This document shows positions 24,915 through 56,880 of a stretch of DNA of 64,000 nucleotides, in pieces. The stretch spans positions 5,828-69,827 of the forward strand of contig DATIHL010000007.1 in the NCBI GenBank assembly GCA_035480715.1. The letters are read 5' to 3'. A program made the position numbers and the translations under genes. The stretch's first letter is position 1. Each line of letters starts with the position of its first letter. Origin of the DNA: Candidatus Saccharimonadales bacterium. GTDB taxonomy: Bacteria > Patescibacteriota > Saccharimonadia > Saccharimonadales > UBA10212. The notes under the pieces are model-generated. The model was not told the origin of the DNA and made no database searches. It saw nothing but the letters and a program-made list of their open reading frames with translations.

Positions 24915-24928
24915 CATGTTAAGTATTT
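24905..24928. repeat. perfect 24-bp palindrome of the TACTTAAC/GTTAAGTA family
   Basis: AAATACTTAACATGTTAAGTATTT is its own reverse complement. It spans the stop codons of the convergent genes jag (24912-24914) and the GT4 gene (24919-24921). Confidence 0.85.
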
Positions 24929-26013
24929 AGCGCTTTACGGTAAACATCCAATGTCTGCTCGGCCAGGCGTTGCCATGAATATTTAGAAGCCTGGACTCTA
25001 CTGGCTCTAATCAATTCTGAGCGCAGCTTGGCATTCTCCAGAAGACCTTTAATTTTATTGGCTATATCCAGAACGTCTAAAGGCTTAAAATAATGGGCTG
25101 CATCACCGTAGATTTCCGGTAGGCACGTGGCGTTTGAACTTAAAACCGGAGCGCCGTGCACCATAGCTTCCAAGCCTGGCAGGCCGAAACCCTCGCTCAA
25201 AGATGGGAAAGCATAAGCAGCGCAGCGCTCATACAGCCATTTAAGCTGGGCGTCCGAGACAAATCCAACCAAACTTAGTCCCTGTATGTGTTCTTTCTCG
25301 GCCCAAGCTTCCAGTCGCTCATAAAGCACATCTTTTTTACCAGCTAAAACCAGTCTAAGTTCAGGATGCTTTTGGCGTGCTATAGAATAAGCCTCTACCA
25401 GCCGCTGCAGGTTTTTGTGCGGCTGCGGCCGTCCAACGTATAGCAAAAATTTTTGGCCGGTCAATCCTGTTACCGCGATTGGTAGATCGACTATTTTATC
25501 GGCTGCTTCATAAGTTACAGTAATTTTACTCGGCTTTATTTTTGCATATTGTGCGACATCGTTTTTTACGTACTTACTTGGCGTTATGACGTGGATCGAT
25601 TTATGAGCTACTATCCTAATAACCAATTTGTAAACTGCCTGCTTTAGGCCAAAAACCAGCTGGTTTTTGGCGGGATTACGGAAACGGGCCGTAGTTAGAT
25701 CGTGTATGGTGGTAACGGCTTTGCCGTGGTACAAAACCGGCTGCTGCGTGTGAGCAAAGTGCACCAAGTCGGCATTGAGAACCCGAAGCTGTTTTAAAAG
25801 CCCGATTTGTTCAGCAAATGTAAATTCTTTGAAATTAGACTCGATGACTTCAAAATCCGGCGCGATGGCCTTCATGAAATCGAGCCTATGCGGTTTTGTT
25901 AGGATTATAAAATCCAAATCTGGCTTGAGCTTCTGCAGGTTCTCTACCAGCTTATCGACATAACGCCCAGTACTGGTCCCCGACTCTCTGGCATCAATTA
26001 CAATCAGCGGCAT
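24919..26013 (-). CDS. glycosyltransferase family 4 (GT-B, retaining)
   Basis: 364 aa with the C-terminal EX7E-type motif FPSLSEGFGLPGLEAMVHGAPVLSS. Confidence 0.85.
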   Translation of the reverse strand: MPLIVIDARESGTSTGRYVDKLVENLQKLKPDLDFIILTKPHRLDFMKAIAPDFEVIESNFKEFTFAEQIGLLKQLRVLNADLVHFAHTQQPVLYHGKAVTTIHDLTTARFRNPAKNQLVFGLKQAVYKLVIRIVAHKSIHVITPSKYVKNDVAQYAKIKPSKITVTYEAADKIVDLPIAVTGLTGQKFLLYVGRPQPHKNLQRLVEAYSIARQKHPELRLVLAGKKDVLYERLEAWAEKEHIQGLSLVGFVSDAQLKWLYERCAAYAFPSLSEGFGLPGLEAMVHGAPVLSSNATCLPEIYGDAAHYFKPLDVLDIANKIKGLLENAKLRSELIRASRVQASKYSWQRLAEQTLDVYRKALNT

Positions 26014-26044
26014 TATCTTTACTATATCGCATTAGGCTTTAGAA

Positions 26045-27427
26045 TTATCTCGCCAAGCCATCAGAACTGTTTTTTAGCGTTTTTTGTCGGGGGTACAATC
26101 CGGCTAAAGCTATCCCAATAACCACCCACAGCCTGGCCAGCAGTATTGAATGGAAGAAATTACCCTGGATTAGCATGGCAATTGCGGCTAGAGCAAATGG
26201 GGCTGCTGGATGTTTCCAATGTAGTTTGGATAAGCGTATGATTGCCGTCACGAGCGCAATAACTAAAGGCGCAAATAATATTAAGCCAACCAGGCCAAGG
26301 TCAACCAACAAACCAAGTAGGTCGTTATTAAAAGGCTGAAGCTGGGTGTCCGGTACGCCTTTGTTATATTGGTCGAGATTTAACTTCACGCGGCTATTAT
26401 AAGCCCCCACTCCCTGCAGCGGGCGTTGTTTGATATAAGTTATGGCCTTTGGCCAAGTGTTATAGCGCGTCTGGGCCGACTGGTCAGCAACGTCAATTGC
26501 ATGTCCGCCAAAAATCGCTACATTACCTTTTACTCCCGAATCGGCACCGTTGATCGCGTGCTTATGGATAAATCTTGAGGCTATCCCGCTGGCAATCACA
26601 AATGCAATTGCGATTAAAACTACCCCCCCGGCGACTTTTGCAAAGTACGGCAATGCACTGCGCATCAGCTCCCTTTTACCCAGCCCAAAAACAAACAATA
26701 TGGCAGTAACCAATAATGCAAGCAAAGCGCTCCTAGCCAAGGACAGAATAAACAGTGAGCTTGTGGCGGCGAATAGAGTAATTAGGAACTTATTTTTCCG
26801 CGCAGATTTATCAAATACAAAATCGTGGATCATCAGCCAGATTGGGATCAGCAAAAAGTTAGCGAAATAAAGCGGTTCTATAGATACCGAATGGACTCTC
26901 GGGAATATATAGGTTGAGTTGGAAGTACAGCAGCCGCGTAGATCCGTGATTTTAGTTGAGGCGCCAAAAATATCAAATACGAACTGGAAAAAACCAAAGG
27001 CTATAACTAGGGCGGTGACTATGTAGATGGTTTTTTTTATAATCTTCCATAATGAATGGTTCTCGTGCAGTAGAATAAAAAAACAAATTGCTTTCAACAC
27101 CACCACTAACAGTAGCTTAGTCGCGCCAACAGCCAGCTTCCTGTCTATCGCATAGTGAATGCTTTGGGCATAGGCTAGGGTCGGCAGCAATATCAGAGCC
27201 GAAATGGCAGTTACCTTTTTAAAATCTGCCCAGCGCTTATCATAAATAATTTTTATGTACCGTCTGGCTGCTGCAATTAGCAGCAAGGCAAAAGAGATTG
27301 CGCCTAGCTTCAGTGGTATATAGTGTAAATAGGGAAATCGATCTATTGGCATAATACAAAGGCTTAGAATTACGCCCGTTAACTCGATGTATTTAAATGC
27401 CTGTCTTAAGCCCTCATTTTTCAGCAC
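26045..27427 (-). CDS. O-antigen ligase/polymerase-like (Wzy_C-type) polytopic membrane protein
   Basis: 460 aa with about 11-12 TM helices and one larger extracytoplasmic loop. It sits in a glycan locus. The call rests on topology and context. Confidence 0.6.
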   Translation of the reverse strand: MLKNEGLRQAFKYIELTGVILSLCIMPIDRFPYLHYIPLKLGAISFALLLIAAARRYIKIIYDKRWADFKKVTAISALILLPTLAYAQSIHYAIDRKLAVGATKLLLVVVLKAICFFILLHENHSLWKIIKKTIYIVTALVIAFGFFQFVFDIFGASTKITDLRGCCTSNSTYIFPRVHSVSIEPLYFANFLLIPIWLMIHDFVFDKSARKNKFLITLFAATSSLFILSLARSALLALLVTAILFVFGLGKRELMRSALPYFAKVAGGVVLIAIAFVIASGIASRFIHKHAINGADSGVKGNVAIFGGHAIDVADQSAQTRYNTWPKAITYIKQRPLQGVGAYNSRVKLNLDQYNKGVPDTQLQPFNNDLLGLLVDLGLVGLILFAPLVIALVTAIIRLSKLHWKHPAAPFALAAIAMLIQGNFFHSILLARLWVVIGIALAGLYPRQKTLKNSSDGLAR

Positions 27428-27511
27428 AGTCCTATCTTATCATGGTCCCACTGCCAAGCTGCCGGCCCCAATAACCTTAGTACGGTATAATATAACCTTG
27501 GTTAGTAATTT

Positions 27512-28543
27512 ATGGCGAGCCGAAAAAGAGCACTCATTACTGGTATAACTGGGCAGGACGGTAGCTATTTGGCTGAGCTACTGCTGGATAAAAACTATGA
27601 AGTTTATGGGGTTATCCGCCGGGCCAGCACATTTAATACGCATCGGATTGACCATATTTACCAAGACCCACATGAGCGCGGCGCCCGCCTGCACTTGGTG
27701 TACGGCGACTTATCGGATGCCGGCTTTGTTTATGGTGCCCTGTCATCAATCCAGCCCGATGAAATCTATAACTTAGCGGCCCAAAGTCATGTGCGTGTAT
27801 CGGTGGACATACCGGAATACACCGGTGACATAGATGCCCTCGGTGCTGTTCGAATTTTGGAAGCTATGCATCGCCTAGGTCTTAAAAACTCTCGCTTTTA
27901 CCAAGCCTCCTCGAGTGAAATGTTCGGCAAAGTGCAGGAGACTCCACAAAAAGAAACCACACCGTTTTATCCACGCTCACAATACGCCGTCGCTAAGGTC
28001 TATGGACACTGGATAACTGTTAATTATCGCGAGAGTTACGGCATGTTTGCCTGCTCCGGCATTCTATTCAATCACGAAAGCCCGCGCCGGGGCGAAACTT
28101 TTGTCACGCGCAAGATCACGCGCGCGGTGGCGTACATCAAAGCTGGCTTGCAGGACAAATTGTATCTGGGCAATTTGGATGCCAAGCGCGATTGGGGCTA
28201 TGCTAAAGAGTACGTTGAGGCAATGTGGTTGATGCTGCAACAAGATAAGCCGGACGATTATATCGTCGCCACTGGCGAAACTCATGCAGTACGTGAATTT
28301 TTGGAAGAAGCCTTTAGATACGCCGGTCTGGACTATAAAAAGTATGTCGAATTTGACAAAAGGTATACCAGGCCAGCAGAAGTCGACCTTCTGATAGGGG
28401 ACGCATCTAAAGCCAAAAAAAAGCTAGGCTGGCAACCCAAGACCAAATTTAAAGAGTTGGTTAAAATTATGGTCGATGCCGATATGGAAGACTTGGACAA
28501 AAGGCTCAAAGGTAAAGTCCAGGCAACCCGCGAAGTTATCTAG
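27512..28543 (+). CDS. gmd: GDP-mannose 4,6-dehydratase
   Basis: 343 aa. [40 protein letters not shown] and ..SSSEMFG..YAVAKVY are hallmark Gmd strings. Confidence 0.95.
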
Positions 28544-29690
28544 AATTACTTAACGAGTCAAGTAGCTTTATCAATTTTTGGGCCGAAGCTTCCCAAGTAT
28601 ATTTCTTGGACTGGGAGAGTCCTGCCCTACTAAGATTGCTAGCTAATGTAGTGTCTGATAAAACTTGGTTGATGGCCGCCGTCAATGCTCGTGTATCCTC
28701 GGGCCTTATCTTAATGGCTGCATCACCGACAACTTCTGGCAACGAGCTGGAGTTGCTGGTAATAACCGGTACTCCGCACGCCATTGCCTCTAGTGGTGGT
28801 ACGCCAAAGCCCTCATAAAAAGAGGGCCAGATAAATACACTGGCGCCACTTAGCAGTGGAGCGAGTTCTTCATTCTCGATATAGCCAAGTAGTAATATCT
28901 TGTTGCCGGCTTTCTGCAGTTGTCCGATTTTACGGTAAATTCCTTCATCATTCCATCCTTTGCCACCACTTAAAACTAGTGCGTACCTAGTCTTCAACCC
29001 AGTATCTAGCTGCGCGTAGGCGTCTAAAATACCTTCAATATTTTTCCGAGGCTCGATAGTGCCGTGAAAATGAATATAGTTTTCCGGCAGGCTATATTTT
29101 TGACGGACTTTCCCTATGTCTATAGCTGGACGAGGGTAAAACCGCTCATGGTCAACGCCATTAGGGATGACTGTTATTCTGTCTGGAGGCAGCTTATAAA
29201 ATTCAGCTATCTCCTTTTTAGAATTTTCCGAAACCGTAATTATATGCGCCGCTCTTTTAATTGAACGCCTCAATAGCTTTGGGGTATATTTTAAATTTTT
29301 AGCCTGGGTAAACTGCGGGAATTTTATAAAGGATATGTCGTGCACTACAATTATTGATTTGGTGTTTTTGCGCAGTGGAAAAGCAATAAAATTAAAGAAC
29401 AAAAAAGCATCGTATTTTCTTAGTGCCACGAGGTCATAAGGAATAAACCAGTTTAAGCGTTTGAACACTTGGTAATAAATGATTGGCGGGAACCACTTAA
29501 CCAGTCTATAACTAAGACGGCTACTAGGCTTTAGGGGAGGTTTAAATTTTTTGAACACTAACCAATGGCGGACAATTTCAAAATTGATGTCGGAATCTTT
29601 TTTTGTCGCTGCTTCGATTAATCGCTTTGCATAGTAACCCACACCACTACTGCGCTTAAAAAATAAGCTGCCCTCTATGCCGACTTTCAT
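28536..29690 (-). CDS. glycosyltransferase family 4
   Basis: The motif [25 protein letters not shown] is present. The start is taken at MKVGIEG (ATG 29690), which overlaps the upstream stop as ATGA and is preceded by AGGAACAAAA. Confidence 0.85.
28547..28564. repeat. degenerate member of the TACTTAAC/GTTAAGTA palindrome family
   Basis: TACTTAAC-GA-GTCAAGTA has one arm mismatch. It lies in and just after the convergent overlap of gmd with the GT4 gene. Confidence 0.4.
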
Positions 29691-30769
29691 TTTTGTTCCT
29701 TCAGGCAATCATTATATATTTGCGCCGTTTTTTCTATCATAGTTTTAAGGCCGAAGCTAGCCTTCACGTGCTTACGCGCAGCGGCCTGAATATCTTGGTA
29801 CATTTTAGGGTTAGATACTATTTTATTAATTTGTTCTAAGAAATTGTTTTGGCTAGAATTACCAACCAAAATTCCCACAGAAGGATTATTAATAATTTCA
29901 GGTAACCCTCCGACATTCGTAGCTATAACCGGTACTCCGCACGCCATTGCCTCTAGGGCTACTAGTGGTATGCCTTCTGAAGTAGAAGTTAAGCAAAGCA
30001 AGCTGGCTTCGGTATAGACTAGATTAATTTTATCTGGCGGGCAGAACCCGTAAAGCTCTAAATTATCGATTCTGCGAGCCTTAATATATAAGCGGATGCT
30101 TGGTAAGAAACTGCCATCACCAACTATACGGAATTTATAATCTAGGCCTTGAGCCTTAGCAGCTTCAGCAATTTTTACAAATAACAACGGGTTTTTATCA
30201 GCCTCTTCTACGCGGCCAATCCAGGTTATATATTCCCCAGGTTCTGAGTTGGGCTCATAGCTTTCAACATCGATTCCATTATGGACAACAGCGCACTTAT
30301 CCTCATCTACGCCGCGCTTTAGTAAGTCCTTTTTAGTCTGTTCGCTAACGCAGATAACTTTTGATATTTTTGCAAAATTTTGGCGCACGGCTGCGTTGAA
30401 CTCCTCTGGGATTAAGAATCTTGTCAGCAAAGTAAGAGTTACATTGGGATGATTGATCGCCTCTATTAAAGCGCCATCAAAATCTTGCAGGCTTATCAGA
30501 TCATAGTTTTTAGCCTGAAATATAAATTTAAAGTACAGGCGGTAATAGATTTTGCGCAGCCGGTAATTACGCGGCAATCTCGCAAGTAATTTCGGAAACA
30601 GTATAAACCTATGTTTACTAATTACGCCCGCCAGTATACTAAGCGATCGTTTTTTAGCCAGCACAACCAAATCGAATTTAGCCTGCAACCCTGGCAATAA
30701 GCTGCTTAAGTAAACTTCTCCACCACCGATTGAACGGGCCTGGGTAATAAATAATATTTTAGGTTTCAT
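29687..30769 (-). CDS. glycosyltransferase family 4
   Basis: The motif [31 protein letters not shown] is present. The start is taken at MKPKILFIT (ATG 30769), preceded by AGGAACAAAAA. Confidence 0.85.
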   Translation of the reverse strand: MKPKILFITQARSIGGGEVYLSSLLPGLQAKFDLVVLAKKRSLSILAGVISKHRFILFPKLLARLPRNYRLRKIYYRLYFKFIFQAKNYDLISLQDFDGALIEAINHPNVTLTLLTRFLIPEEFNAAVRQNFAKISKVICVSEQTKKDLLKRGVDEDKCAVVHNGIDVESYEPNSEPGEYITWIGRVEEADKNPLLFVKIAEAAKAQGLDYKFRIVGDGSFLPSIRLYIKARRIDNLELYGFCPPDKINLVYTEASLLCLTSTSEGIPLVALEAMACGVPVIATNVGGLPEIINNPSVGILVGNSSQNNFLEQINKIVSNPKMYQDIQAAARKHVKASFGLKTMIEKTAQIYNDCLKEQK

Positions 30770-32600
30770 TTTTTGTTCCTGTTGCAAGAATGATGGCGAT
30801 AGTCATGAAGAGGGAAGAAAATAGCCGTAGGTGTTTAACAGAAGTCTTTAAAAGCATAACAGCTATTTGTTTGCGTTCTGAATCGGACTGAATTGCCCGT
30901 CGGACATTCAAAGGGGTTCTAATTATTCGAATGGGCTTGGAAGCAAGTTCTCTCTGCAATTTGGTTGATTGGAAGTTTTGCATGTCTAAATTAGCCGACG
31001 ATATACTCTCGTCGTGTACGCGAAATTCGTAGAGCTGCTTTTCGATATTAGCCACTGGCCCGCGCTGGGCTAGCCGTCCCCATAAGTCAAAATCTTCAAC
31101 CGGATAATACGCCTGGCGATAATCACCAGCTTCGTCGATGGCACGTTTGCGAATCATTACAGAACCATGTGCGAATGGGCTATAGGTAAATAAGCTCATC
31201 CGAATTTCAGCATCGCTGGTAGGATAGTTCCTTTGGCCAATTTTCTTATCTTTGCTATTGATTTCTGCTACATTCGTGCCTACCAAAACTAATTCATGGG
31301 TTCTATTGAGTAACACTAACTGTTCCTCAAAGCGATTAGGCAAAGAAATATCATCTGCGTCCTGGCGGGCAATAAACTCACCGCGTGCCAGGCCAATTCC
31401 GATATTAAGCGAAGCCACCAAGCCTTTGTTTTTTTGCTTGATCTTAACAACTCGGGAGTCATTATATGAGTCAATTATTTTTTGCGTTTTATCCGTTGAA
31501 CCATCATTAATGATAATAATTTCAAAGTCTTTAAAGGTTTGATTTAGGACACTGTCCATGGCTTTTGCCAGGTATTTTTCTCCGTTATAAACGCTCATAA
31601 CAACTGATACCAGTGGTGGTTTTGGCAGGTTAAAGTCATTGGCTACTATGGCGTCTAATTCACGCGACCGATAACTGGGCGAAACTCGCCGGCGAATTAC
31701 TCGCAGCCATTCATTACCCAGCAAGATCCGCATATAAACAAACCAAACGTGATAATTTAGCGTAAAAAAAGTAAGTGGGTTATACAAAAAAGATCGCAAA
31801 AACATCCGCCGAGCTGCTGGCCGATCGCCGCCATTAAAGTACAAGAAGCAGGCTTCCTTTAGGCAAGTTTTACCAAGGCGCGCCCGGTCAAGTGCCCCAA
31901 GCTTAAATTCCCGGACCATTGATGGCAGCATGTATTCTAATCCCTTGGCCATTTTGATGTAGTTGCGCTGCATACCCGTATCAAGCACTCGAAGGCTGGC
32001 TAGAAACTCGGGTACATAGTCTATTTCATAGTTCTTGGCAATCCTCAGCCACATTTCCCAGTCCTCGCCGATCAAAAAATCTTCGTGGAAAACACCGATT
32101 GAACCAAAAACCTCGCGCTTGACCATTACCATACTGCCACTACCGGAAATCCGGTTGTTATGTAATAAGTAGCGGAATAAATTTCCACGCTTTTGGAAGG
32201 TCACCTCGCTGATGACATTATTGTTATCGTCAATTAATTTGCACAAACCATATACCATGCCAACTCTGGGGTTCTTATCAAAAACAGCCAGCTGTTTCTC
32301 CAGCTTATCCGGATGCCAAATATCATCTGAGTCTAAAAACGTAATAAACGGTGAGTTGGAAACCTTAATGCCATGATTACGAGCAGTAGCCTGGCCGCCG
32401 TTTTGTTTGTGAACATAATGTACACGCTTATCTTTTAGGCTTTGGACATATTTTTTTGTAGCGCTCCTATCGGTTGAACCGTCATCAATTACATACAGCA
32501 CTAGATCGCTGTGAGTTTGGGCTAATACGCTCTCAATAGCATCATTTAAATATGGTAGCCCATTATAGGTAGGGATAATTACATCAACAGTTGACCTCAT
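30759..32600 (-). CDS. tandem double GT2 glycosyltransferase
   Basis: 613 aa with two GT-A openings: VDVIIPTYNG..VIDDGSTD and VSVVMSVYNG..IIINDGSTD. Each has a downstream DxD region (FLDSDD; RQDADD). Confidence 0.85.
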   Translation of the reverse strand: MRSTVDVIIPTYNGLPYLNDAIESVLAQTHSDLVLYVIDDGSTDRSATKKYVQSLKDKRVHYVHKQNGGQATARNHGIKVSNSPFITFLDSDDIWHPDKLEKQLAVFDKNPRVGMVYGLCKLIDDNNNVISEVTFQKRGNLFRYLLHNNRISGSGSMVMVKREVFGSIGVFHEDFLIGEDWEMWLRIAKNYEIDYVPEFLASLRVLDTGMQRNYIKMAKGLEYMLPSMVREFKLGALDRARLGKTCLKEACFLYFNGGDRPAARRMFLRSFLYNPLTFFTLNYHVWFVYMRILLGNEWLRVIRRRVSPSYRSRELDAIVANDFNLPKPPLVSVVMSVYNGEKYLAKAMDSVLNQTFKDFEIIIINDGSTDKTQKIIDSYNDSRVVKIKQKNKGLVASLNIGIGLARGEFIARQDADDISLPNRFEEQLVLLNRTHELVLVGTNVAEINSKDKKIGQRNYPTSDAEIRMSLFTYSPFAHGSVMIRKRAIDEAGDYRQAYYPVEDFDLWGRLAQRGPVANIEKQLYEFRVHDESISSANLDMQNFQSTKLQRELASKPIRIIRTPLNVRRAIQSDSERKQIAVMLLKTSVKHLRLFSSLFMTIAIILATGTKNET

Positions 32601-42157: not shown

Positions 42158-42257
42158 AAATACTCCCAGGCTCAACTTGAATTTTGGGTAATTCGAAGAA
42201 CATAAATACAAGAGTTAGTATAGCATACCCTAATCTGTTATTGGCTGTCTGTAGAAC

Positions 42258-48273: not shown

Positions 48274-48305
48274 TAATAAATACTTAACTTGTTAAGTATT
48301 TATTA
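48274..48305. repeat. best member of the TACTTAAC/GTTAAGTA palindrome family (15-bp arms, 2-nt spacer)
   Basis: TAATAAATACTTAAC-TT-GTTAAGTATTTATTA lies between convergent genes. It includes the stop codon of the minus-strand PMM/PGM gene (48292-48294). Confidence 0.85.
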
Positions 48306-49635: not shown

Positions 49636-50650
49636 TGGATTTCCTTTCTATGGTTTGTTGCCAGCGCCAAGCATCAGCCACGGCATCTTGAACACTCCTT
49701 TGCGTTTTCCAGCCCAACCCTTTGTTGGCTTTTTTGGGTGACGCAAAATAAGCTGCTGGGTCGCCCGGTCTGCGAGGACCGATTTTATAGGGAACTTTAA
49801 CACCATTAACCTTTTCAAATGTCTTTAATAGCTCCAAAACGCTTGTCGGTTTACCCGTTCCCAAATTGTATACACTGTAGTTTTCGGCTGAATCTTTCTT
49901 TTCAAGCTTTTGCAGCGCAGCCACGTGGGCTTTAGCCAGGTCGACTACGTGGATATAATCGCGCAAGCACGTACCGTCTGGCGTGGGGTAGTCAGTCCCA
50001 TAAACAGTTAGGGAAAAAACTTGCTCTGTAGAAGCCTGAAGAATGATAGGTAGCAGATTTTGCGGTTTACCCTTAGGCCGCTCGCCGATTTTAGCCGAAG
50101 GGTGAGCGCCAATCACATTGAAGTATCGCAGAGCCACGCCTCTTAAAGTCGGGTTAGAAGCACATAAGTCACGAAGAACTATTTCATCCATATATTTGCT
50201 CCAGCCGTACGGGGAAGTGGGTGCGCACGTGGTATCTTCGGTGACTATATCAGTAGGCGGATTACCGTAAACAGCGGCGCTAGAAGAAAAAACAAAGTTA
50301 TTTATTTTTTGCTTTAGTAAATTACTTAACAAGTCAAGCATTCCAGACAAATTATTATTATAATACTTAAGTGGTTGCTCAACTGATTCTCCCACTGCCT
50401 TAAAAGCTGCAAAATGAATCACGCCGTCGATCTTTTCTTTAATCAGAATTTTTTGAATTCCTTTGTCTTGAAAATCGGTCTCATAACACGCTATTTGCTT
50501 GCCGGTAATTTTCTTAAGTCCACTCAAGACCGACTTATCCGAGTTACTAAAGTTGTCGACAATAACCGGACGATACCCAGCGCTCACAAGTTCCACTACG
50601 GTATGTGAGCCTATAAATCCAGCGCCCCCAGTTACCAAGATATTCTTCAC
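49628..50650 (-). CDS. galE: UDP-glucose 4-epimerase
   Basis: 340 aa with ILVTGGAGFIGSH and the YGWSK (YxxxK) catalytic motif. The length and C-terminus are GalE-like. Confidence 0.9.
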   Translation of the reverse strand: MKNILVTGGAGFIGSHTVVELVSAGYRPVIVDNFSNSDKSVLSGLKKITGKQIACYETDFQDKGIQKILIKEKIDGVIHFAAFKAVGESVEQPLKYYNNNLSGMLDLLSNLLKQKINNFVFSSSAAVYGNPPTDIVTEDTTCAPTSPYGWSKYMDEIVLRDLCASNPTLRGVALRYFNVIGAHPSAKIGERPKGKPQNLLPIILQASTEQVFSLTVYGTDYPTPDGTCLRDYIHVVDLAKAHVAALQKLEKKDSAENYSVYNLGTGKPTSVLELLKTFEKVNGVKVPYKIGPRRPGDPAAYFASPKKANKGLGWKTQRSVQDAVADAWRWQQTIERKSNG

Positions 50651-50656
50651 TAAATA

Positions 50657-52486
50657 TTATTCTACAGTAACGGATTTAGCTAGGTTCCGGGGGCGATCAA
50701 CGTTTTTACCGAGTTTCATAGCGGCATAATAAGCAAATAGCTGCAGAACGATAGCCGTCAGCAGCGGCTGGGTTTGCTCAAGCGATTTTGGTATGTAAAT
50801 AACATCATCCACCAATTTCTTAATGTCCTTATTACCTTCTGTAGCAATGGCGATAATCGGGCCACCGCGGGCTTTTATTTCTTGGATGTTGGAATAAGTC
50901 TTCTCCAGCACTGGGCCGTCAGTAGCAATCGCCATGGTGGCAAAATTCTTATCAATCATGGCTAGCGGGCCGTGCTTCATCTCGCCCGCGGCGTAGCCCT
51001 CGGCGTGGATATATGAAATTTCTTTGAGCTTGAGTGCGCCCTCGAGTGCACAGGGAAATTCATAACGTCTGCCAATGTATAAAAAGTCGCGCTGATTAGA
51101 ATATTTTTCTGCCAGTTTTTTAATTTGGTCTGACTGGGCTAACACCTCCTCAGCTTTCTTGGGCAGCTTGTCTAACTCATTGAGCAATGGTTTAAAAAGT
51201 TTGGTTGATCCATTGCTTAAATGAAGCGCAATAAGTGCCAGCACGGTGACTTGGGCTATAAAAGCTTTGGTAGATGCTACAGCTTGTTCAGGCCCGGCGT
51301 GACAATAAACACCGGCATCCGTCAGCCGAGCGATAGTGGAGCCCACCGCATTAACGACACCCAAGCGTAGCATGCCGTAATCTTCAACTTTTTTAAGGGC
51401 GGCGATTGTATCAGCGGTTTCGCCGGATTGTGAGATAGCCAGCACAGCTGTGCTGCGCGAAAATGGCTCATCACGGTATTTAAATTCCGATGCCAGTTGG
51501 ACTTCTACCGGTATGCCAGCGAGTTCTTCGATCAGGTATTCGCCAACTAAGCCAGCATAAAATGATGTGCCGCAGGCTACGATCACAATTCTATCGATGA
51601 ACTTGAGTTGCTCGGTCACATTCTCTAGGCCGCCGAGCTTTACTGTAGCGCTGGCAGGCTTGACTCTACCGAGCGTTGCCGAGCGGATAGTTTGCGGCGC
51701 CTCGTAAATTTCTTTAAGCATAAAGTTGGAGAAGTCGCCAAGCTGGACCTGCTCAAAGTCAAAATCAAGCGTTTCGGCAGAACGCTTTACATCAACTGAT
51801 TTTTTAAAGTTTTTTATCCTATAGTTTTTTCTGGTGACTACGACCATTTCGTAATCGTCTAAATAAACTACATCTTTAGTGTGCTCCATAACAGCCGTGG
51901 GGTCCGATGCTAAGATAAATTCATCCTTGCCTACGCCTAGAATTAGTGGACTTGAAAGCCGCGCGGCAAAAATCGTATCCGGCTCGTGAGTAGTAATTAC
52001 GGTGATTGCGAAAGCTCCGCGCAGCTCGTGCAAAGTTTGCTCGAAAGCTGCCTCAAAATTTTTGGACTTTTTGTAGTGATAATCAATCAGCTGCGGGATT
52101 ACCTCTGTGTCAGTTTGCGAAATAAATTTATAACCAAGACTCTCTAACTTTGATCGGATTTGAACGTAGTTTTCGATAATGCCGTTATGGACCACAAAAA
52201 TGGTTTTATCTTGATTGTAATGCGGGTGGGCATTGATGATCGTCGGCGCGCCGTGGGTGGCCCAGCGTGTATGGCCTATGGCGATATCTGGCTTAGTTTT
52301 AACTTTACTGCTGACGCTTTTTTCTAAGGCTTCAACACGACCAACTTGTTTAACCAGCTCGCCTCGATCCTTATCCAGATAGGCGACACCTGCAGAATCG
52401 TAACCGCGGTATTCTAAGGCTTTAAGGCCGTCTACGACCGGCCCCAGAGCACTTTTTGTACCTAAATAGCCAACAATGCCGCACAT
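50657..52486 (-). CDS. glmS: glutamine--fructose-6-phosphate aminotransferase
   Basis: 609 aa. It has the MCGIVGY N-terminal nucleophile, two SIS domains and the C-terminal ..NLAKSVTVE. Confidence 0.97.
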   Translation of the reverse strand: MCGIVGYLGTKSALGPVVDGLKALEYRGYDSAGVAYLDKDRGELVKQVGRVEALEKSVSSKVKTKPDIAIGHTRWATHGAPTIINAHPHYNQDKTIFVVHNGIIENYVQIRSKLESLGYKFISQTDTEVIPQLIDYHYKKSKNFEAAFEQTLHELRGAFAITVITTHEPDTIFAARLSSPLILGVGKDEFILASDPTAVMEHTKDVVYLDDYEMVVVTRKNYRIKNFKKSVDVKRSAETLDFDFEQVQLGDFSNFMLKEIYEAPQTIRSATLGRVKPASATVKLGGLENVTEQLKFIDRIVIVACGTSFYAGLVGEYLIEELAGIPVEVQLASEFKYRDEPFSRSTAVLAISQSGETADTIAALKKVEDYGMLRLGVVNAVGSTIARLTDAGVYCHAGPEQAVASTKAFIAQVTVLALIALHLSNGSTKLFKPLLNELDKLPKKAEEVLAQSDQIKKLAEKYSNQRDFLYIGRRYEFPCALEGALKLKEISYIHAEGYAAGEMKHGPLAMIDKNFATMAIATDGPVLEKTYSNIQEIKARGGPIIAIATEGNKDIKKLVDDVIYIPKSLEQTQPLLTAIVLQLFAYYAAMKLGKNVDRPRNLAKSVTVE

Positions 52487-52514
52487 TTGTATTATTATTT
52501 CATATTTTTACTGA

Positions 52515-53618
52515 TTACGCAATTTTTCTGATAAAACCTTCTATGTTTTTACGAAAGTGCGTAGCAGAAAATTTAGCAGCTTCAGCAGCGATTGTCGAGT
52601 GGTTAAAGGTTTTTTTATCTATTTCTTCCATTGCTTTAGCCAAACTTTCGGCGGTTAGTTCATTAAAGAAAAGGCCAACATCATTATTTATATAGTCGAG
52701 TGCACCACCATCTTTGTAAGCTACAACCGGCGTGCCGGCAGCCATAGCTTCAACAGCTACGATGCCAAAATCATCAACACCTGGAAAAATAAAAGCTTTG
52801 GCTGCGCCAAAGCGTTCCGGTATCTCGACGTCAGATACTCTACTTAAGAAAGTAACACTTCGTCCTGCCTGCCTTTTTAATTTTCGCTGCTGCGGTCCTT
52901 GCCCGATAACAATCAACTGAACATTGAGCTGAGTTGCTGCTTTGACAGCCAGATCAGTGCGTTTATACGGCGTTTGGCGACCGGCTGTCACAAAGTCGTG
53001 ACGCTGATCGTCTGGCTGGCTAAAGTCTTTAAACCGCTCGATATCAACCGGCGGATGAATCACTACCGAATCTCGATCATAGTATTTCTTTATCTGGGAC
53101 TGGGTGTAAGTGGAATTGGCTATTAAATAGTCTGGTCTTTGAGCGGCTCTATAATCCCGTTTTCTCATTGGTCCGACGAGCAGCTTTAAACTGATCCGAG
53201 CAATTGAATCAAGCCGGCCAAAACCCGGATTTTCTAAGTAATCTTCGTAGCGGCTCCAATAATAGTGCGTTGGCGCATGAATATAGGAAATGTGCTTAGC
53301 GCCCTCACGAACTTTAACGAATTTGGCCTCGGCGCCACTAGCCGAAATCACTAAATCATACTCATCCAGATCCAAACGACTAAAGGCAAAAGCCCTCAAT
53401 AGCGGTAAGAATTTTTTCAAACTCTTAGGCAGTCTTTGTAGCCAGGTAGTTCTGATGTCGGCATCTGAGAACCATTTATCGCCATACCATAAATTGGGAT
53501 TTGGATCGTACTGCGAAGTATAAATTGGTGCTTCGGGGAATATGTGGTGGAGTTCTAAAACTACGCGTTCAGCACCGCCTGTACCAAGCAACCAATCGCA
53601 AACAATCACTACCTTCAT
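52515..53618 (-). CDS. glycosyltransferase family 4
   Basis: 367 aa with the motif FPGVDDFGIVAVEAMAAGTPVVAYKDGG. Confidence 0.85.
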   Translation of the reverse strand: MKVVIVCDWLLGTGGAERVVLELHHIFPEAPIYTSQYDPNPNLWYGDKWFSDADIRTTWLQRLPKSLKKFLPLLRAFAFSRLDLDEYDLVISASGAEAKFVKVREGAKHISYIHAPTHYYWSRYEDYLENPGFGRLDSIARISLKLLVGPMRKRDYRAAQRPDYLIANSTYTQSQIKKYYDRDSVVIHPPVDIERFKDFSQPDDQRHDFVTAGRQTPYKRTDLAVKAATQLNVQLIVIGQGPQQRKLKRQAGRSVTFLSRVSDVEIPERFGAAKAFIFPGVDDFGIVAVEAMAAGTPVVAYKDGGALDYINNDVGLFFNELTAESLAKAMEEIDKKTFNHSTIAAEAAKFSATHFRKNIEGFIRKIA

Positions 53619-53621
53619 TTT

Positions 53622-55067
53622 CTATTTTGCTCCAATACGACCAAGTACCACGCGAATGGTTTTAATAAGAATGATTAAATCCAGCCACAAACTCCAATTT
53701 TGCACGTAATAAAGATCAATTTTCCGTCGCTCTTCAAAACTGATATTTCGCCGCCCAGAAACCTGTGCCAAACCCGTAAGGCCTGACTTTACTGCTAGGA
53801 TTAAATCCTTCTTATCATGTTTTTCTAATTCGGGTGCATAGAGGGCTCGGGGGCCTACTAGACTAATATCACCTTTGACTACGTTAAAAAGCTGCGGCAG
53901 CTCATCCAGGCTTGAACCGCGCAAAAGACGCCCCATACGAGTGATTCGAGGATCATTAGGGAGTTGGTCGCCGCCTTTGCGGTATTCATTAATTAATTCT
54001 AGCCGCCCCATCTTGGTAAAAGCTTCTTCCGGACTCATTCCAGTATAGTGCCGATTCATGCTACGGAATTTCATGATTCTGATTTTGGTACCAAAGCGTG
54101 TCAACCTAATTTCTTTGTAAAGGATCGGTGCTTTAATGTCGGAAAGCTTTTCGGCAACAGCAATTATCAGCATAAAAGGTAGGGCAATTATTAATAAACT
54201 TCCACCTAGTATTAAATCGGTGAATCGTTTGACCACACGCCCCCAGCCAATAAGGGCAGTTTGATGCACGGCAATCACGGGGATTTGGGAACGGAATAAC
54301 TCTACCTCTATGTTGCCAACAAACATCTCGCTATTGCCCGGAATGAAACGGTAAGAAATGTGATGCGTTTGGGCAAATTCCAGAATTTCGTTATTTTTAT
54401 CCTGATTAGCATAAAGCTCGGTCTGCACGATGCTATGAATGTCATCGGCTCGGAGCTTAGCTACCGCTTCATCAAAGGTGTCAAAAACAGGCAAATGTGG
54501 GGATCGCTCTGGCGCATGAGATTTATTACCAACAACACCTACGATGCGGTAGCCCGAGATATGGTGGTCGGCTAAATTTTCAACCAATTCGCGGGCAATT
54601 TTTGTATTGCCGACTATCAAGATATTGGTTATCCCGACGTCGTACTTAAAAAGATAAGCTCTGCTTTCGCGTGCCAGATTCCTAAAAACTGCCAGAAATA
54701 TAAATGCCAAACTAAAGCCGTAAACCGGTACGAGTCTGGCGGGGAATACAATTTTGTTAAAGGCATAGCCATAAGCGATCACAAACAACAGTCCGACGAA
54801 AGAACCGATGAATAACCGCCCAAGCTCCGGAAAGCGCTTCTCTTGGATCGAACTGCTATAAAGTCCGAGCAACGCAAAAAACAAAATCCAAAATGGTAAA
54901 AGCAGGGCAAAGATCCTTAAGTATTCAGATCCAGCAATCGGATGAGCCACAGGGATATTAGTTAAATGCCCGCGGATAAGATAGGCGAATACAAAAGCTG
55001 CCACCAATGCCAGAAAGTCGCCCACTACCAAAACAAAACTGTAAATTAGCGAGGCGTTACTTTTCAT
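53622..55067 (-). CDS. polyprenyl-phosphate sugar phosphotransferase (WbaP/bacterial sugar transferase family), initiating enzyme
   Basis: 481 aa with N-terminal TM helices and a central NAD-binding-like region. The C-terminal catalytic strings are [35 protein letters not shown]. Confidence 0.9.
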
Positions 55068-55088
55068 CTATACTAGATTGTAGCATTT

Positions 55089-56438
55089 ATGAAGCCCTCT
55101 ACCACTGTTAACAAACTGGCGCTTCGACTGTCGCTACTCGTTGGTCTGATACTAGTGCTTCTGCCTTTCCACGCTTTTTTGACTGTTTGGCTGGATAGCT
55201 TAGTCGACCACTACACCATCTTGCGTTTATGGAAAGAATTCTTTCTGGCCGTCATCGTAGCCGGAGTTCTTTATATACTGGCTATTGATAAACCATTGCG
55301 GAAAGGGTTATTGTCGTTCTGGCCTGCCAGATTGATCGGCGTTTATACATTGGTACTGTTAATTTGGGGCGTTATAGCTCTGGCCAAACATGATGATACC
55401 GGCAAGGCTATGTGGTACGGGCTATTGGTCGATCTCAGGTTTTTGGTATTTTTCCTGGTTGTCTGGGTATTGGCGACAAAAACTTCTTGGCTGAAGGATA
55501 AATGGCAAAAATTTTTATTTGTACCGGCGATTTTTGTTGCTGCTTTTGCAATTTTGCAATATTTAGTTCTGCCTTATGATTTTTTAAAGGATTTTGGATA
55601 TGGCCCAGACACCATATTTCCCTATGAAACAATCAACCATAACATAAACCATTTGAGGGTTATGTCTACTCTACGTGGCGCCAATCCGCTTGGTGCTTAT
55701 TTGCTTTTGCCCATTTCGGCCTTAGCGGCCATGTATTTTAAGAAAGTTGGCAAAAAAACCGACAAACTGATGTTTGGTTTTGGTCTGTTGCTGGCTTTGG
55801 TTTTCAGCTTTTCGCGTAGCGCTTGGATAGGTGCCGGATTAAGTATTTTAATTATCGTTTGGTATTCGCTTAAGTCTGACAAAGCCAGAAAAATCATGCT
55901 TTTGATAATCGCGGGATTGATTATTGTCGCTAGCCTAATCGCTGTCGCTCTGCGTAATAATATTACCTTCGAGAATACTTTTTTACATACTGAGCACGCC
56001 TCAAAAGTACGTGTCAGTTCTAATGAGGCGCATGGCACGGCTTTTAAAAATGCGGCTAGAGATATTATCCATCAGCCGTGGGGTGAAGGTGTTGGTACGG
56101 CTGGCCCGGAGTCTATATACAATAACCACCCGGCGCGCATTGCCGAGAATTATTTCCTGCAAGTTGGTCAAGAGGCAGGCGTGCTTGGAATGGCCTTGTT
56201 TATCTCCATATGCGCGGCCGTTGGCAAACTACTTTGGGGTCGTAGGTCAGATCCATTGTCTTTATGGCTGTTTGCCAGCCTAGTCGGCATTACTTTTATA
56301 AACCTGCTTTCGCATGCCTGGACCGACGATACGCTAGCCTACATATGGTGGGGTTTGGCTGGAATTGCTTTAGCGCCTGCTATACTGACAGATATAAAAC
56401 ATAAGCAACATGAAAAAGCTCAACAAACGGCGCCGTAA
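55089..56438 (+). CDS. O-antigen ligase/polymerase-like polytopic membrane protein (second copy)
   Basis: 449 aa with about 11 TM helices and one large loop (..HTEHASKVRVSSNEAHGTAF..GEGVGTAGPES..). Confidence 0.6.
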   Translation: MKPSTTVNKLALRLSLLVGLILVLLPFHAFLTVWLDSLVDHYTILRLWKEFFLAVIVAGVLYILAIDKPLRKGLLSFWPARLIGVYTLVLLIWGVIALAKHDDTGKAMWYGLLVDLRFLVFFLVVWVLATKTSWLKDKWQKFLFVPAIFVAAFAILQYLVLPYDFLKDFGYGPDTIFPYETINHNINHLRVMSTLRGANPLGAYLLLPISALAAMYFKKVGKKTDKLMFGFGLLLALVFSFSRSAWIGAGLSILIIVWYSLKSDKARKIMLLIIAGLIIVASLIAVALRNNITFENTFLHTEHASKVRVSSNEAHGTAFKNAARDIIHQPWGEGVGTAGPESIYNNHPARIAENYFLQVGQEAGVLGMALFISICAAVGKLLWGRRSDPLSLWLFASLVGITFINLLSHAWTDDTLAYIWWGLAGIALAPAILTDIKHKQHEKAQQTAP

Positions 56439-56880
56439 GCTTCTAATCCAGTTTATAGAGTACATGATCAGTGGAGGGGCGTATTTTTGGAGCGGGTATG
56501 CGCTGTTTGCGTATCTTTGGTCGGGGCTGCATTGGAGCCTTTGGTGGGCTAAATTATCAGCCAATATTTTTGGCTGGACGATAAATTTTATCTTGCAGCG
56601 CTACTGGGTTTTTCGTAATCCGCACCTGAAGGGCAAGCTAGGCAGAGTCTCTACGCGCTTTATGATCATTACTTTGGTTGATTTTGTAATGGATTACTTT
56701 ATCATCTACGGTCTAAGGCACTATATCGGCTTGACGCCATACATCGGCCAGTTTGTTTCATCAGGCTTCTTTACGATTTGGAACTATCTTTGGTATCGTT
56801 TTTGGGTGTTTCCAGAAAGACTGCCAGCGCCTCACCACCCGGCCCGCAAACACGTCCGCCCTCATCATATGAAAGTTTAG
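56410..56880 (+). CDS. GtrA-family membrane protein
   Basis: 156 aa with 4 TM helices and the GtrA-like strings FIEYMISGG and NFILQRYWVF. It overlaps the upstream gene by 29 nt. Confidence 0.8.
   Translation: MKKLNKRRRKLLIQFIEYMISGGAYFWSGYALFAYLWSGLHWSLWWAKLSANIFGWTINFILQRYWVFRNPHLKGKLGRVSTRFMIITLVDFVMDYFIIYGLRHYIGLTPYIGQFVSSGFFTIWNYLWYRFWVFPERLPAPHHPARKHVRPHHMKV

Follow-up and report, generated by a model that had tools for sequence, protein, structure and literature searches.

The 64,000-nucleotide (64-kb) stretch of Saccharimonadales DNA analysed here, which we call the window, holds a locus of ~32 kb at 24919–56880 that probably encodes an ABC-transporter-dependent, cap-controlled surface-glycan pathway in a monoderm cell. 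From the sequence, the product is predicted to be a fucose-/mannose-type, methyl-capped surface polymer. We infer its sugar composition, its terminating methylation and its acceptor from the domains present and from homologous systems that have been characterised. Among the ORFs of the window, the locus comprises 27 closely packed genes (~99% coding density), 25 of them with glycan-related domains, and it adjoins the replication origin of this small-genome bacterium. Eleven same-strand genes (28536–42211) overlap by 4–29 bp in an operon-like manner. The GC content of the glycosyltransferase core is 43.1%, against 46.0% for the window outside the locus; low-GC cores of this kind have been described for O-antigen clusters and for the S-layer glycan (slg) cluster of Geobacillus (PMC2943079). 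The domain inventory was obtained with Pfam, from which the GT family labels also derive, and the precursor genes were scored against NCBIfam curated/equivalog cut-offs. All the parts of a surface-glycan locus listed in a first-pass annotation of this DNA were recovered in place, with domain E-values far beyond chance (Table 1).

The guess of a reduced-genome epibiont made in that annotation fits the Saccharimonadales host and the presence of a near-syntenic locus in a complete Saccharibacteria chromosome of 669,327 bp. If the genome were of that size, 32 kb would be ~4.8% of it, in keeping with the large share of coding capacity proposed earlier. Glycosylation in Saccharibacteria has been termed unexplored (PMC11623550), as had been supposed for the envelope glycans of this cell type. 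In cryo-TEM images, CPR cells show an S-layer but lack an outer membrane (bioRxiv 10.1101/2020.05.14.094862). The locus gives Saccharimonadales a first map of a predicted coat of this kind, assembled from known, conventionally organised parts; what is new is a Wzt whose C-terminal carbohydrate-binding domain is related to that of the Aquifex protein, together with an overlapping gene that fuses GT-B, GT-A and methyltransferase domains.

Table 1. Features of the glycan locus and of the adjacent uppP gene, in order of position in the window.
Feature	Position	Strand	Evidence
GT4a, GT4-type glycosyltransferase	24919..26013	-	Pfam Glycos_transf_1 2.6e-30 + Glyco_transf_4
Wzy_C protein 1, ligase/O-oligosaccharyltransferase-like	26045..27427	-	Pfam Wzy_C 2.5e-20
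Gmd, GDP-mannose 4,6-dehydratase	27512..28543	+	TIGR01472, 532 bits vs cut-off 415
GT4b, GT4-type glycosyltransferase	28536..29708	-	Pfam Glycos_transf_1 1.7e-31
GT4c, GT4-type glycosyltransferase	29687..30787	-	Pfam Glycos_transf_1 5.2e-34
Double GT2 glycosyltransferase, 613 aa	30759..32600	-	Pfam Glycos_transf_2 2.3e-68, two stretches
GT2 glycosyltransferase	32597..33565	-	Pfam Glycos_transf_2 1.3e-34
GT11, alpha-1,2-fucosyltransferase family	33550..34425	-	Pfam Glyco_transf_11 6.3e-36
MT1, SAM-dependent methyltransferase	34422..35426	-	Pfam Methyltransf_11/23/25
MT2, SAM-dependent methyltransferase	35423..36358	-	Pfam Methyltransf_23/11
GT-B + GT-A(GT2) + methyltransferase protein, 900 aa, candidate polymerase-terminator	36342..39044	-	Pfam
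Wzt ABC ATPase + C-terminal carbohydrate-binding domain (~aa 260-414)	39026..40270	-	PDB sequence search
Wzm ABC-2 permease	40267..41094	-	Pfam ABC2_membrane 8.1e-18
Fcl, GDP-L-fucose synthase-like SDR, ~35-aa insertion	41081..42211	-	NF047922, two stretches
Probable FkbM-like methyltransferase	42258..42998	-	Alignment to PF05050 domain of P0058
670-aa secreted/anchored protein, conserved N-domain + three Ig-like repeats	43051..45063	-	Pfam N_BRCA1_IG
184-aa membrane-anchored protein, Ser/Thr/Asn-rich linker	45060..45614	-	Sequence + TM scan
Stand-alone cupin, similar to the PMI part of type II PMI-GMP proteins	45712..46242	-	Pfam MannoseP_isomer
GalU-like UTP-glucose-1-phosphate uridylyltransferase	46281..47189	+	TIGR01099
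ManC, mannose-1-phosphate guanylyltransferase	47191..48270	+	Pfam NTP_transferase + ManC_GMP_beta-helix
PMM, phosphomannomutase/phosphoglucomutase family	48292..49635	-	Four PGM_PMM domains
GalE, UDP-glucose 4-epimerase	49628..50650	-	TIGR01179, 405.6 bits vs cut-off 262
GlmS	50657..52486	-	TIGR01135, 765 bits vs cut-off 418
GT4d, GT4-type glycosyltransferase, adjoins initiating transferase	52515..53618	-	Pfam Glycos_transf_1 1.4e-26
WbaP/WcaJ-type polyprenyl-phosphate hexose-1-phosphate transferase	53622..55067	-	Pfam Bac_transf 5.5e-53 + CoA_binding_3
Wzy_C protein 2	55089..56438	+	Pfam Wzy_C 2.3e-12
GtrA-family small membrane protein	56410..56880	+	Pfam GtrA_DPMS_TM 1.2e-18; overlaps Wzy_C protein 2 end
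UppP/BacA undecaprenyl-diphosphatase	57809..58660	-	Pfam BacA 1.5e-75

Pfam recovered Wzm/Wzt, GtrA and, 0.9 kb past the locus end, uppP, all of which had been named before, and identified no MOP/Wzx-type domain among the locus ORFs. Wzm is similar to the NCBIfam Wzm/RfbD and KpsM-like models, under their cut-offs. For Wzt, the top match of the PDB sequence search is the full-length Aquifex aeolicus Wzt (1e-64, match reaching residue 373), with ~30% overall identity. When only the C-terminal domain was used as a profile, the sole match was the isolated A. aeolicus carbohydrate-binding domain (CBD; E 2.3e-4), and Pfam Wzt_C, which is matched in 36 of 55 full-length Wzt homologs, scores under its gathering cut-off (E 0.0031; 17.9 bits, cut-off 30.4). 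With the AlphaFold2 model (pLDDT 88), the top seven Foldseek matches are full-length WzmWzt structures (411–428 aligned columns, E ~1e-36), compared with ~1e-26 for NBD-only structures. In A. aeolicus, a 3-O-methyl-Man/Rha cap is bound by the CBD, and once capped the chain stops growing and is licensed for export (PMC9445017). The pathway is best read as ABC-transporter-dependent, with a predicted cap-reading Wzt.

The wzt gene is overlapped by that of the 900-aa fusion protein, which has its GT-B domain at the N-terminus and its methyltransferase at the C-terminus (Pfam). Its AlphaFold2 model (pLDDT 90.4) has three domains, including a Rossmann methyltransferase, and Foldseek matches are at the domain level only. 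A protein with 100% identity to it is recorded from a Candidatus Saccharimonadales MAG. With this GT-B domain as the fifth, Pfam recovers 10 glycosyltransferase domains (five GT-B/GT4-type, four GT2 and one GT11), the same set as in the first-pass annotation. The GT11 protein carries an HxRRxD motif (HVRRGD at residue 162), the double GT2 is TuaG/EpsE-like but under the NCBIfam cut-offs, and GT4a has only generic NCBIfam matches.

We compared the window locus with related loci from other genomes (L-numbers). Its core is found again in other Patescibacteria, Actinobacteria, Paenibacillus, Akkermansia and Desulfovibrionaceae, with cassettes in Gottesmanbacteria, Microgenomates, Motilibacter deserti, Solirubrobacterales, Paenibacillus, Akkermansia and Desulfovibrionaceae MAGs. 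The shared arrangement is [Fcl-like SDR]-Wzm-Wzt-[GT-B+GT-A +/- MT]-MT-GT11-GT2, so that GT11 belongs to a cassette kept across phyla. For the glycosyltransferase pair, identity is 42–54%. In the 23 related loci a methyltransferase, of Methyltransf_11 or FkbM type, is fused to this pair or encoded directly after it; Wzm-Wzt lies directly upstream of the pair in 10 of the 23, and GT11 within 10 kb in 13. The precursor, initiation and ligase genes that flank the core are not the same as in the window locus, and the methyltransferase module is exchanged from one locus to another (Methyltransf_11 or FkbM type, fused or separate). In the literature searched, no experimental study of these cassettes was apparent. 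GT4b, which ends the 11-gene operon, is 61% identical to its L019 and L024 homologs.

Three clear methyltransferase domains and a probable FkbM-like fourth agree with the three or four expected earlier. MT1 has the motif I ILDVGC, and its homologs come after the GT4-GT2 gene in L009, L010, L019 and L024, as do those of MT2 in L005, L006 and L020. The FkbM-like protein has no match in domain libraries; its N-terminal 61 aa align with P0058 where the PF05050 domain of that protein begins (E 2e-10), it carries the motif FVEFGA, and its homologs are found in the position that follows the GT4-GT2 gene in L003, L007, L011 and L020. Methylation likely includes a chain-terminating cap, and it may also be chain-internal, since three to four methyltransferases exceed the need of a single cap.

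The two ligase/polymerase-like proteins of the first-pass annotation are both Wzy_C proteins, without mutual similarity. In neither did a simple pattern search find the WaaL-type H[NSQ]x9Gxx motif, and neither has a sequence match to any solved ligase. Protein 1 has ~10 TM segments (TM scan) and no PDB or NCBIfam match, and is conserved beside gmd in L024 and L019. The two could in principle be polymerases, but because no Wzx was found they are more likely ligases/oligosaccharyltransferases, which narrows the earlier description. In the 64-kb window we identified neither an acceptor protein nor an S-layer gene or LCP ligase. A glycan domain is absent from the 670-aa and 184-aa proteins. The former has an N-terminal hydrophobic segment and an N-domain without annotation (4890 related clusters), which among 40 representatives occurs with Amidase_2 (two), a ricin-type lectin (one) and SpoIID (one); it is syntenic in L007, L019 and L024. 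The latter, syntenic in L019 and L024, weakly matches a surface-protein family and might, speculatively, be a glycosylation target.

A possible, if doubtful, alternative is that the same assembly and export route yields a wall-anchored secondary polysaccharide, as in streptococcal rhamnan or mycobacterial galactan, joined to peptidoglycan through an LCP-type ligase whose gene lies elsewhere, with Wzy_C used otherwise, for example for extracytoplasmic side chains with GtrA. The Wzt NBD is indeed equally close to TagH/TarH, mycobacterial galactan Wzt and O-antigen Wzt, the overlap of GtrA with the second Wzy_C gene recalls extracytoplasmic glycosylation systems, and glmS and uppP are common to wall synthesis. 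However, we found no LytR_cpsA_psr domain among the window ORFs scanned and recognised no GtrB-like polyprenyl-phosphate sugar synthase, and a Wzy_C gene is kept inside the locus in sister genomes.

The precursor genes reported earlier are present: Gmd, GalE and GlmS score over their cut-offs, and Fcl (437 bits to NF047922, cut-off 500), GalU (239 bits to TIGR01099, cut-off 327), ManC (255 bits, cut-off 373) and PMM (CpsG-like, 405 bits, cut-off 801; the archaeal GlmM model also gives 336 bits) are best matches below equivalog cut-offs. Fcl is ~32% identical to the Fcl-like gene in the matching position of sister loci. ManC consists of a GMP domain and beta-helix without cupin and aligns with positions 1–350 of TIGR01479, and the separate cupin, whose MannoseP_isomer score (28.1 bits) exceeds the Pfam cut-off of 23.6, aligns with its C-terminal part (positions 364–466). 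The initiating transferase, recognised before as WbaP-like, matches TIGR03025 (EPS_sugtrans; 335 bits, cut-off 295), with the WbaP and WcaJ models below theirs. The glmS, galE, galU and PMM genes are counted into the pathway by adjacency and conserved synteny only, and it is conceivable, though unlikely, that the locus is not one system, but a ~17-kb core (24.9–42.2 kb) and a small initiation/ligase module (52.5–56.9 kb) that happen to neighbour two unrelated secreted proteins and the housekeeping sugar-nucleotide genes glmS, galE, galU, PMM and manC. The first four of these genes belong to general metabolism, the secreted proteins lack glycan-synthesis domains, the N-domain of the larger one occurs in many other architectures, including the amidase and SpoIID fusions, and adjacency is a weak sign of common function in so compact a genome. 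In contrast, the two secreted proteins, as well as galE and manC, lie next to the core at the same place in L024, L019 and L007, the only initiating transferase of the locus lies in the minus-strand glmS-galE-PMM run, and the Gmd/Fcl branch needs GDP-Man as its obligatory precursor.

Ligation to a membrane glycolipid (LPS-like or lipoglycan) or release as free exopolysaccharide is improbable in our view: Wzy_C is the O-antigen ligase domain, the core cassette also occurs in diderms (Desulfovibrionaceae L005, Akkermansia L012), where the product is presumably O-antigen, and a cultured saccharibacterium needs EPS genes for epibiotic growth (PMC10633639), but CPR cells have no outer membrane in the cryo-TEM study cited above, lipid A or core genes were not seen in the window, and the simple pattern search found the WaaL-type motif in neither Wzy_C protein.

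In the cap-controlled, ABC-transporter-dependent pathway that we favour, GDP-Man would be made by the cupin PMI, PMM and ManC, and GDP-L-Fuc from Gmd and Fcl, with UDP-Glc/Gal coming from GalU and GalE and a hexosamine branch beginning at GlmS. The WbaP-type transferase would prime undecaprenyl phosphate with hexose-1-phosphate, and the stand-alone GT4, GT2 and GT11 enzymes would build the adaptor and add fucose. The soluble fusion protein may extend the chain in the cytoplasm until the fused methyltransferase, or one of the adjacent ones, halts growth by O-methylating the non-reducing end. The cap would be read by the C-terminal domain of Wzt, the finished lipid-linked polymer exported by Wzm-Wzt and moved en bloc by a Wzy_C enzyme to an acceptor outside the membrane, and the carrier recycled by UppP. 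Judging by analogy from the S-layer glycan clusters of Geobacillus and Paenibacillus, this acceptor would most likely be a surface protein.

As judged from gene and domain content, the monoderm system most like the window locus is slg of Geobacillus stearothermophilus NRS 2004/3a (WsaP, WsaC/D/F, WsaE, Wzm/Wzt and WsaB; PMC2943079). Both, like wsf of Paenibacillus alvei, combine a monoderm cell with a WbaP-type initiating transferase and Wzm/Wzt. The window locus and slg further share a multidomain enzyme of two glycosyltransferase domains and a methyltransferase, which yields an O-methyl cap in slg, a Wzy_C protein as transferase to the acceptor (in the window by analogy), wzm-wzt-polymerase genes that overlap, internal nucleotide-sugar genes and a glycosyltransferase core of low GC (PMC2943079). 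They differ in donors (GDP-Man/GDP-Fuc against dTDP-Rha) and in fusion order (GT-B, GT-A, MT against MT first), and the window locus has two unrelated Wzy_C genes, two or three extra methyltransferases and no adjoining S-layer structural gene.

The best sequence and fold match of Wzt, including the C-terminal beta-sandwich, is the A. aeolicus WzmWzt (PDB 7K2T, 8DKU, 8DKY, 6O14), whose CBD recognises the 3-O-methyl sugar that caps a deoxyhexose/mannose polymer (PMC9445017), although, by the profile and Pfam scores given above, the two CBDs are only weakly similar. Aquifex is a diderm that ligates its polymer to LPS, whereas the host of the window locus is a monoderm.

The polymannan O-antigen of E. 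coli O8/O9a, a system cited in both PMC2943079 and PMC9445017, depends on the mannosyltransferases WbdA/B/C, the terminator WbdD and Wzm/Wzt-CBD; WecA (PNPT family) initiates it, and the acceptor is lipid A-core. The likeness, predicted on the window side, lies in GDP-Man-fed GT4 enzymes, a multidomain polymerase, a methylation-ended chain and Wzt CBD-dependent export. In the window locus, initiation is of the WbaP type instead of WecA, the candidate terminator is a fused domain instead of a separate coiled-coil protein, and there is a fucose branch with GT11, which E. coli O8/O9a lacks.

The interval at 24919-56880 contains 27 closely packed genes by ORF listing and Pfam scans, is ~99% coding, and is bounded by a GT4 gene at one edge and the GtrA gene at the other, matching the start and end proposed in the first-pass annotation. 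Every component named there was recovered, and its surface-glycan reading was supported and sharpened by pathway typing. With glycosyltransferase family names assigned from Pfam, there are four stand-alone GT4-type proteins, and a fifth GT-B domain forms the N-terminus of a 900-aa protein; the four GT2 domains are found in a 613-aa protein (two), a stand-alone protein (one), and the 900-aa protein (one). The Pfam scans also detected Wzm, Wzt, two Wzy_C proteins, GtrA, an initiating transferase with Bac_transf and CoA_binding_3 domains, and three methyltransferase domains of the Methyltransf_11/23 type. Of the three or four methyltransferases named in that annotation, three are clear and the fourth is probably the FkbM-like gene. 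A BacA/UppP gene lies 0.9 kb past the locus end. None of the glycosyltransferases has an equivalog match in NCBIfam.

Eleven of the genes form a minus-strand run, in the order Fcl, Wzm, Wzt, the 900-aa protein, two methyltransferases, GT11, GT2, the double GT2 protein, and two GT4, each overlapping its neighbour by 4-29 bp. The glycosyltransferase genes of this run have a GC content of 40-43%, versus 46% outside the locus. Overlapping genes and a low-GC glycosyltransferase core are the pattern of O-antigen and S-layer glycan clusters (PMC2943079). Promoter and terminator scans were no better than those of shuffled sequence.

Upstream of the locus are found five tandem T4SS pilin genes, T4SS components, and the recF-dnaN-dnaA/rnpA/yidC-jag origin set. 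This T4SS/origin layout resembles that of Southlakia, a cultured saccharibacterium whose essential T4SS genes are numbered SEML1_0006-0019 (PMC10633639). Only 4 bp separate jag from the first GT4 gene. Past the other edge, the 139-aa ORF is probably not a gene, and a stretch 52% identical to the 159-aa LexA-domain protein occurs near one of the related loci (L006).

Coordinates of features in the window
Feature	Position	Strand	Description
Two adjacent tRNA-Ser genes	238-430		GCT and TGA anticodons; window start
ComFC-like and HSP20 genes	482-1775		double-zinc-ribbon phosphoribosyltransferase; HSP20; window start
Five T4SS pilin genes	1828-4061	-	tandem paralogues, PF18895 T4SS_pilin/TrbC-VirB2 type, 129-149 aa each
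T4SS-like genes	9031-16644		near origin genes; PrgI-like, VirB4/TraG P-loop ATPase, 818-aa no-domain protein, phage-tail-lysozyme-domain protein
Origin set	18747-24914		recF, dnaN, 87-aa ORF, dnaA, rnpA, divergent yidC-jag/KhpB; abuts glycan locus
Wzy_C protein 1	26045-27427
Overlapping gene run	28536-42211	-	11 genes
Methyltransferase MT1	34422-35426	-
Methyltransferase MT2	35423-36358	-
900-aa protein	36342-39044	-	GT-B, GT-A (GT2), methyltransferase
Wzt	39026-40270	-
Wzm	40267-41094	-
Fcl	41081-42211	-
FkbM-like gene	42258-42998		246 aa
670-aa secreted protein	43051-45063
PMI-type cupin	45712-46242
ManC	47191-48270
Wzy_C protein 2	55089-56438
159-aa protein	56900-57379		LexA DNA-binding domain, no recognisable S24 peptidase domain
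139-aa ORF	57412-57831		low-complexity Gly/Ala/Thr/Met runs, no family match; overlaps uppP 3' end on opposite strand

Among the precursor genes, Gmd, GalE, GlmS, and the EPS-type polyprenyl glycosylphosphotransferase model score above the curated NCBIfam cut-offs, while Fcl (437 bits against 500), GalU, ManC, and PMM have their best matches below the equivalog cut-offs. For the small cupin, the only match is to the C-terminal, PMI-type domain of the bifunctional PMI-GMP enzymes. A type II PMI-GMP enzyme is apparently split here: ManC comprises just the guanylyltransferase and beta-helix portions, and a separate gene on the opposite strand, at a distance of ~1 kb, encodes the cupin. GT11 was recognised by Pfam with 124.6 bits and presents an HVRRGD motif. 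With Gmd, Fcl, and GT11 as the predicted GDP-Fuc-dependent transferase, the set for GDP-L-fucose synthesis and transfer appears complete, as judged from sequence.

Of the exporter components, Wzm matches ABC2_membrane (8.1e-18) and Wzt matches ABC_tran (3.5e-22); the two genes overlap by 4 bp, and the best PDB matches are WzmWzt, TarGH, and the galactan Wzt. Wzt has 414 aa, of which ~160 lie beyond the nucleotide-binding domain (NBD), and the alignment with its top PDB match, the full-length Aquifex aeolicus Wzt, extends to residue 373. The C-terminal extension as a single sequence gave no significant PDB match (E 1.2), and a homolog search with this domain alone returned no matches. A profile built from eight Wzt extensions, from the window and related loci, has no match other than the isolated carbohydrate-binding domain of A. 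aeolicus (CBD; E 2.3e-4). The Pfam Wzt_C model, matched by 36 of 55 full-length Wzt homologs, gives E 0.0031 and 17.9 bits for the window protein, below the gathering cut-off of 30.4. In Foldseek, the alignment of the AlphaFold2 model of Wzt (pLDDT 88) with full-length WzmWzt structures covers 411-428 columns at E ~1e-36, compared with ~1e-26 for NBD-only structures. Profile and model point to a predicted C-terminal CBD of the Wzt_C fold in the window Wzt, at about aa 260-414. The A. aeolicus CBD binds a 3-O-methyl mannose/rhamnose cap, and a capped chain stops growing and becomes competent for export (PMC9445017).

The gene for the 900-aa protein overlaps wzt. Its AlphaFold2 model (pLDDT 90.4) has three domains, namely a GT-B domain (1-357), a GT-A domain (362 to ~615), and, after a helical linker, a Rossmann methyltransferase, whose SAM motif I reads VLDVGAG; the protein has no TM segment. 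Searching this model against the PDB with Foldseek identified single-domain analogues only, with no precedent for the whole protein. Neither the 900-aa ORF nor Gmd had an exact match in sequence look-ups, which for the ORF is explained by start-codon choice: an 895-aa database form (P0001) resolved to two short Logan contigs, with identical contigs in two sequencing runs.

In species-representative genomes, the pair formed by the GT-B and GT-A domains is kept at 42-54% identity in 23 loci, which belong to Saccharibacteria, Gottesmanbacteria, Microgenomates, Motilibacter, Solirubrobacterales, Paenibacillus, Akkermansia, Desulfovibrionaceae, and an alphaproteobacterium. Wzm-Wzt is directly upstream of the pair in 10 of the 23, GT11 is found within 10 kb in 13, and a methyltransferase either belongs to the same protein as the pair (Methyltransf_11 or FkbM-type PF05050) or is the product of the gene that immediately follows. 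The FkbM-like 246-aa protein has no library match, but its N-terminal 61 residues can be aligned with the beginning of the FkbM-type domain in one fusion (E 2e-10), and its homologs fill the slot after the pair in four loci. The candidates for a terminating enzyme are the three methyltransferase domains and the probable fourth, one of them being fused to the polymerase candidate. We infer that methylation acts as the chain terminator; a methyl-cap mechanism is argued for mainly by the way in which polymerase, methyltransferase, and CBD-bearing Wzt stay coupled across loci. The presence of three or four methyltransferases suggests that methylation is perhaps not only terminal.

A nearly syntenic locus (L024) is present in a complete Saccharibacteria chromosome of 669,327 bp, on the scale of which 32 kb would be ~4.8%, in agreement with the large share of coding capacity first proposed. 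Identity between the two loci is uneven, decreasing from Gmd (86%) and Wzm (83%) to Wzt (69%), the glycosyltransferase pair (51%), and Fcl (32%), and L024 has neither the fused methyltransferase, nor MT2, nor the FkbM-like gene. The window Fcl shares just ~32% identity with the Fcl-like genes at the same position in the sister loci (L024, at 7019-7954, L019, L006, and L003), has an insertion of ~35 aa, and is nearer to canonical Fcl than they are (437 versus ~290 bits); the L024 gene belongs to a different Fcl-like lineage. It looks as if the fucose synthase was replaced inside a conserved locus frame. An Rmd-like identity for the sister-locus genes was rejected, their best match also being GDP-L-fucose synthase. 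On the basis of the uneven identities, the differing Fcl lineage, and the missing methyltransferases, sequence comparison indicates that the locus frame is conserved and that the fucose synthase and the methylation modules are exchanged. Surface-glycan loci are commonly mosaic in this way. No support emerged for a recent acquisition from actinobacterial hosts, the neighbour-joining tree of the glycosyltransferase pair being star-like; in this crude tree, which has no bootstrap values, the sequences from Patescibacteria (CPR) fall loosely together.

Concerning the route to the surface, the WbaP-type initiating transferase, Wzm/Wzt, and a Wzy_C domain protein are all present (Pfam, NCBIfam), which corresponds to the slg-type combination with Wzy_C as the predicted oligosaccharyltransferase. 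A polymerase and a ligase cannot be told apart by the Wzy_C domain alone. The two Wzy_C proteins have no NCBIfam match and no PDB match, neither to WaaL nor to any solved ligase, and are not alignable to each other, so that homology cannot separate ligase and polymerase roles. A crude pattern search found the WaaL-type H[NSQ]x9Gxx[GTY] loop motif in neither protein, and CPR cells are reported to have no outer membrane; as far as these results go, the locus does not match LPS O-antigen ligation by WaaL to a lipid A-core acceptor. Nor does it appear to encode a Wzx/Wzy-dependent pathway, no Wzx (MOP/Polysacc_synt domain) being present among its ORFs in the Pfam scans. The locus reads best as an ABC-transporter-dependent, cap-controlled pathway, in which soluble multidomain glycosyltransferases would finish the polymer in the cytoplasm. 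A Gtr-type system for glycosylation outside the membrane, made up of the flippase GtrA, the polyprenyl-phosphate sugar synthase GtrB, and a GT-C transferase, was also considered. GtrA was identified by Pfam, but no GtrB/ArnC-like equivalog was recognised in NCBIfam, where the best such score, 49 bits, came from the second GT2 domain of the 613-aa protein.

No LCP ligase was found among the scanned window ORFs, nor any S-layer or SLH domain in the window. CPR cells observed by cryo-TEM have an S-layer and no outer membrane (bioRxiv 10.1101/2020.05.14.094862), and an "outer layer" is visible in a saccharibacterium imaged by cryo-ET, which makes a protein acceptor plausible. Two secreted proteins encoded inside the locus, of 184 and 670 aa, are syntenic in three Saccharibacteria loci, and the smaller has a Ser/Thr/Asn-rich linker; they are only candidate glycoprotein acceptors, with a possible link to the glycan. 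The N-domain of the 670-aa protein (residues ~5-290) has no Pfam model and 4890 related clusters at E<1e-3; among 40 representatives, Amidase_2 was present in two, and a ricin-type lectin and SpoIID in one each. This domain has the motif LQKEESL as well as numerous conserved Cys, Trp, and Gly positions, and it keeps 55-69% identity among many proteins whose C-termini differ (Ig-like repeats, EccB-like, DUF5648, Amidase_2, ricin lectin, SpoIID).

In the model that we propose, the locus enzymes would supply GDP-Man, GDP-L-Fuc, and UDP-Glc/Gal, and the WbaP-type enzyme would prime undecaprenyl phosphate. The GT4, GT2, and GT11 proteins would build the adaptor and add fucose, and the 900-aa fusion would elongate the chain until terminal O-methylation halts its growth. 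The cap would then be read by the Wzt CBD, the polymer exported by Wzm-Wzt, and a Wzy_C enzyme would move it onto the acceptor. A further-reaching reading, which we regard as rather improbable, is a protein O-glycosylation system of Saccharibacteria in which a long, methyl-capped fuco-mannan is made on undecaprenyl phosphate and is attached by the two unrelated Wzy_C transferases to two kinds of acceptor at the surface, such as envelope or S-layer proteins on the one hand and type IV pilins on the other. If true, the epibiont coat would be variable and would govern host recognition, phage attack, and immune visibility, and the cross-phylum cassette, with its GT-B + GT-A enzyme and swappable methyltransferase, would represent a family of fused polymerase-terminators that has not been studied.

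Cultured Saccharibacteria grow on bacterial hosts, with which they interact through their surface. Glycosylation in this group has been described as unexplored (PMC11623550), and for one strain in culture a small number of EPS genes are reported to be important for growth as an epibiont (PMC10633639). The locus provides a testable model for this uncharacterised sugar coat, for which a ~0.7 Mb genome would keep ~5%: a parts list with predicted sugars (Man, L-Fuc, and O-methyl sugars) and candidate acceptor transferases, a predicted control point in the methyl cap read by the Wzt CBD, and a widely distributed, unstudied fucose/methyl cassette with a fused polymerase-methyltransferase. Since the pathway logic is textbook knowledge and involves no new mechanism, the locus is of value as a basis for experiments on a group that has been little studied. 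The same cap-controlled logic operates in the O-antigens of E. coli O8/O9a and Aquifex, and also, in a monoderm, in the S-layer glycan cluster of Geobacillus stearothermophilus (WsaP, WsaE, Wzm/Wzt, WsaB), which shares with the window locus the otherwise unusual pairing of a WbaP-type initiator, an ABC exporter, and a Wzy_C transferase (PMC2943079).
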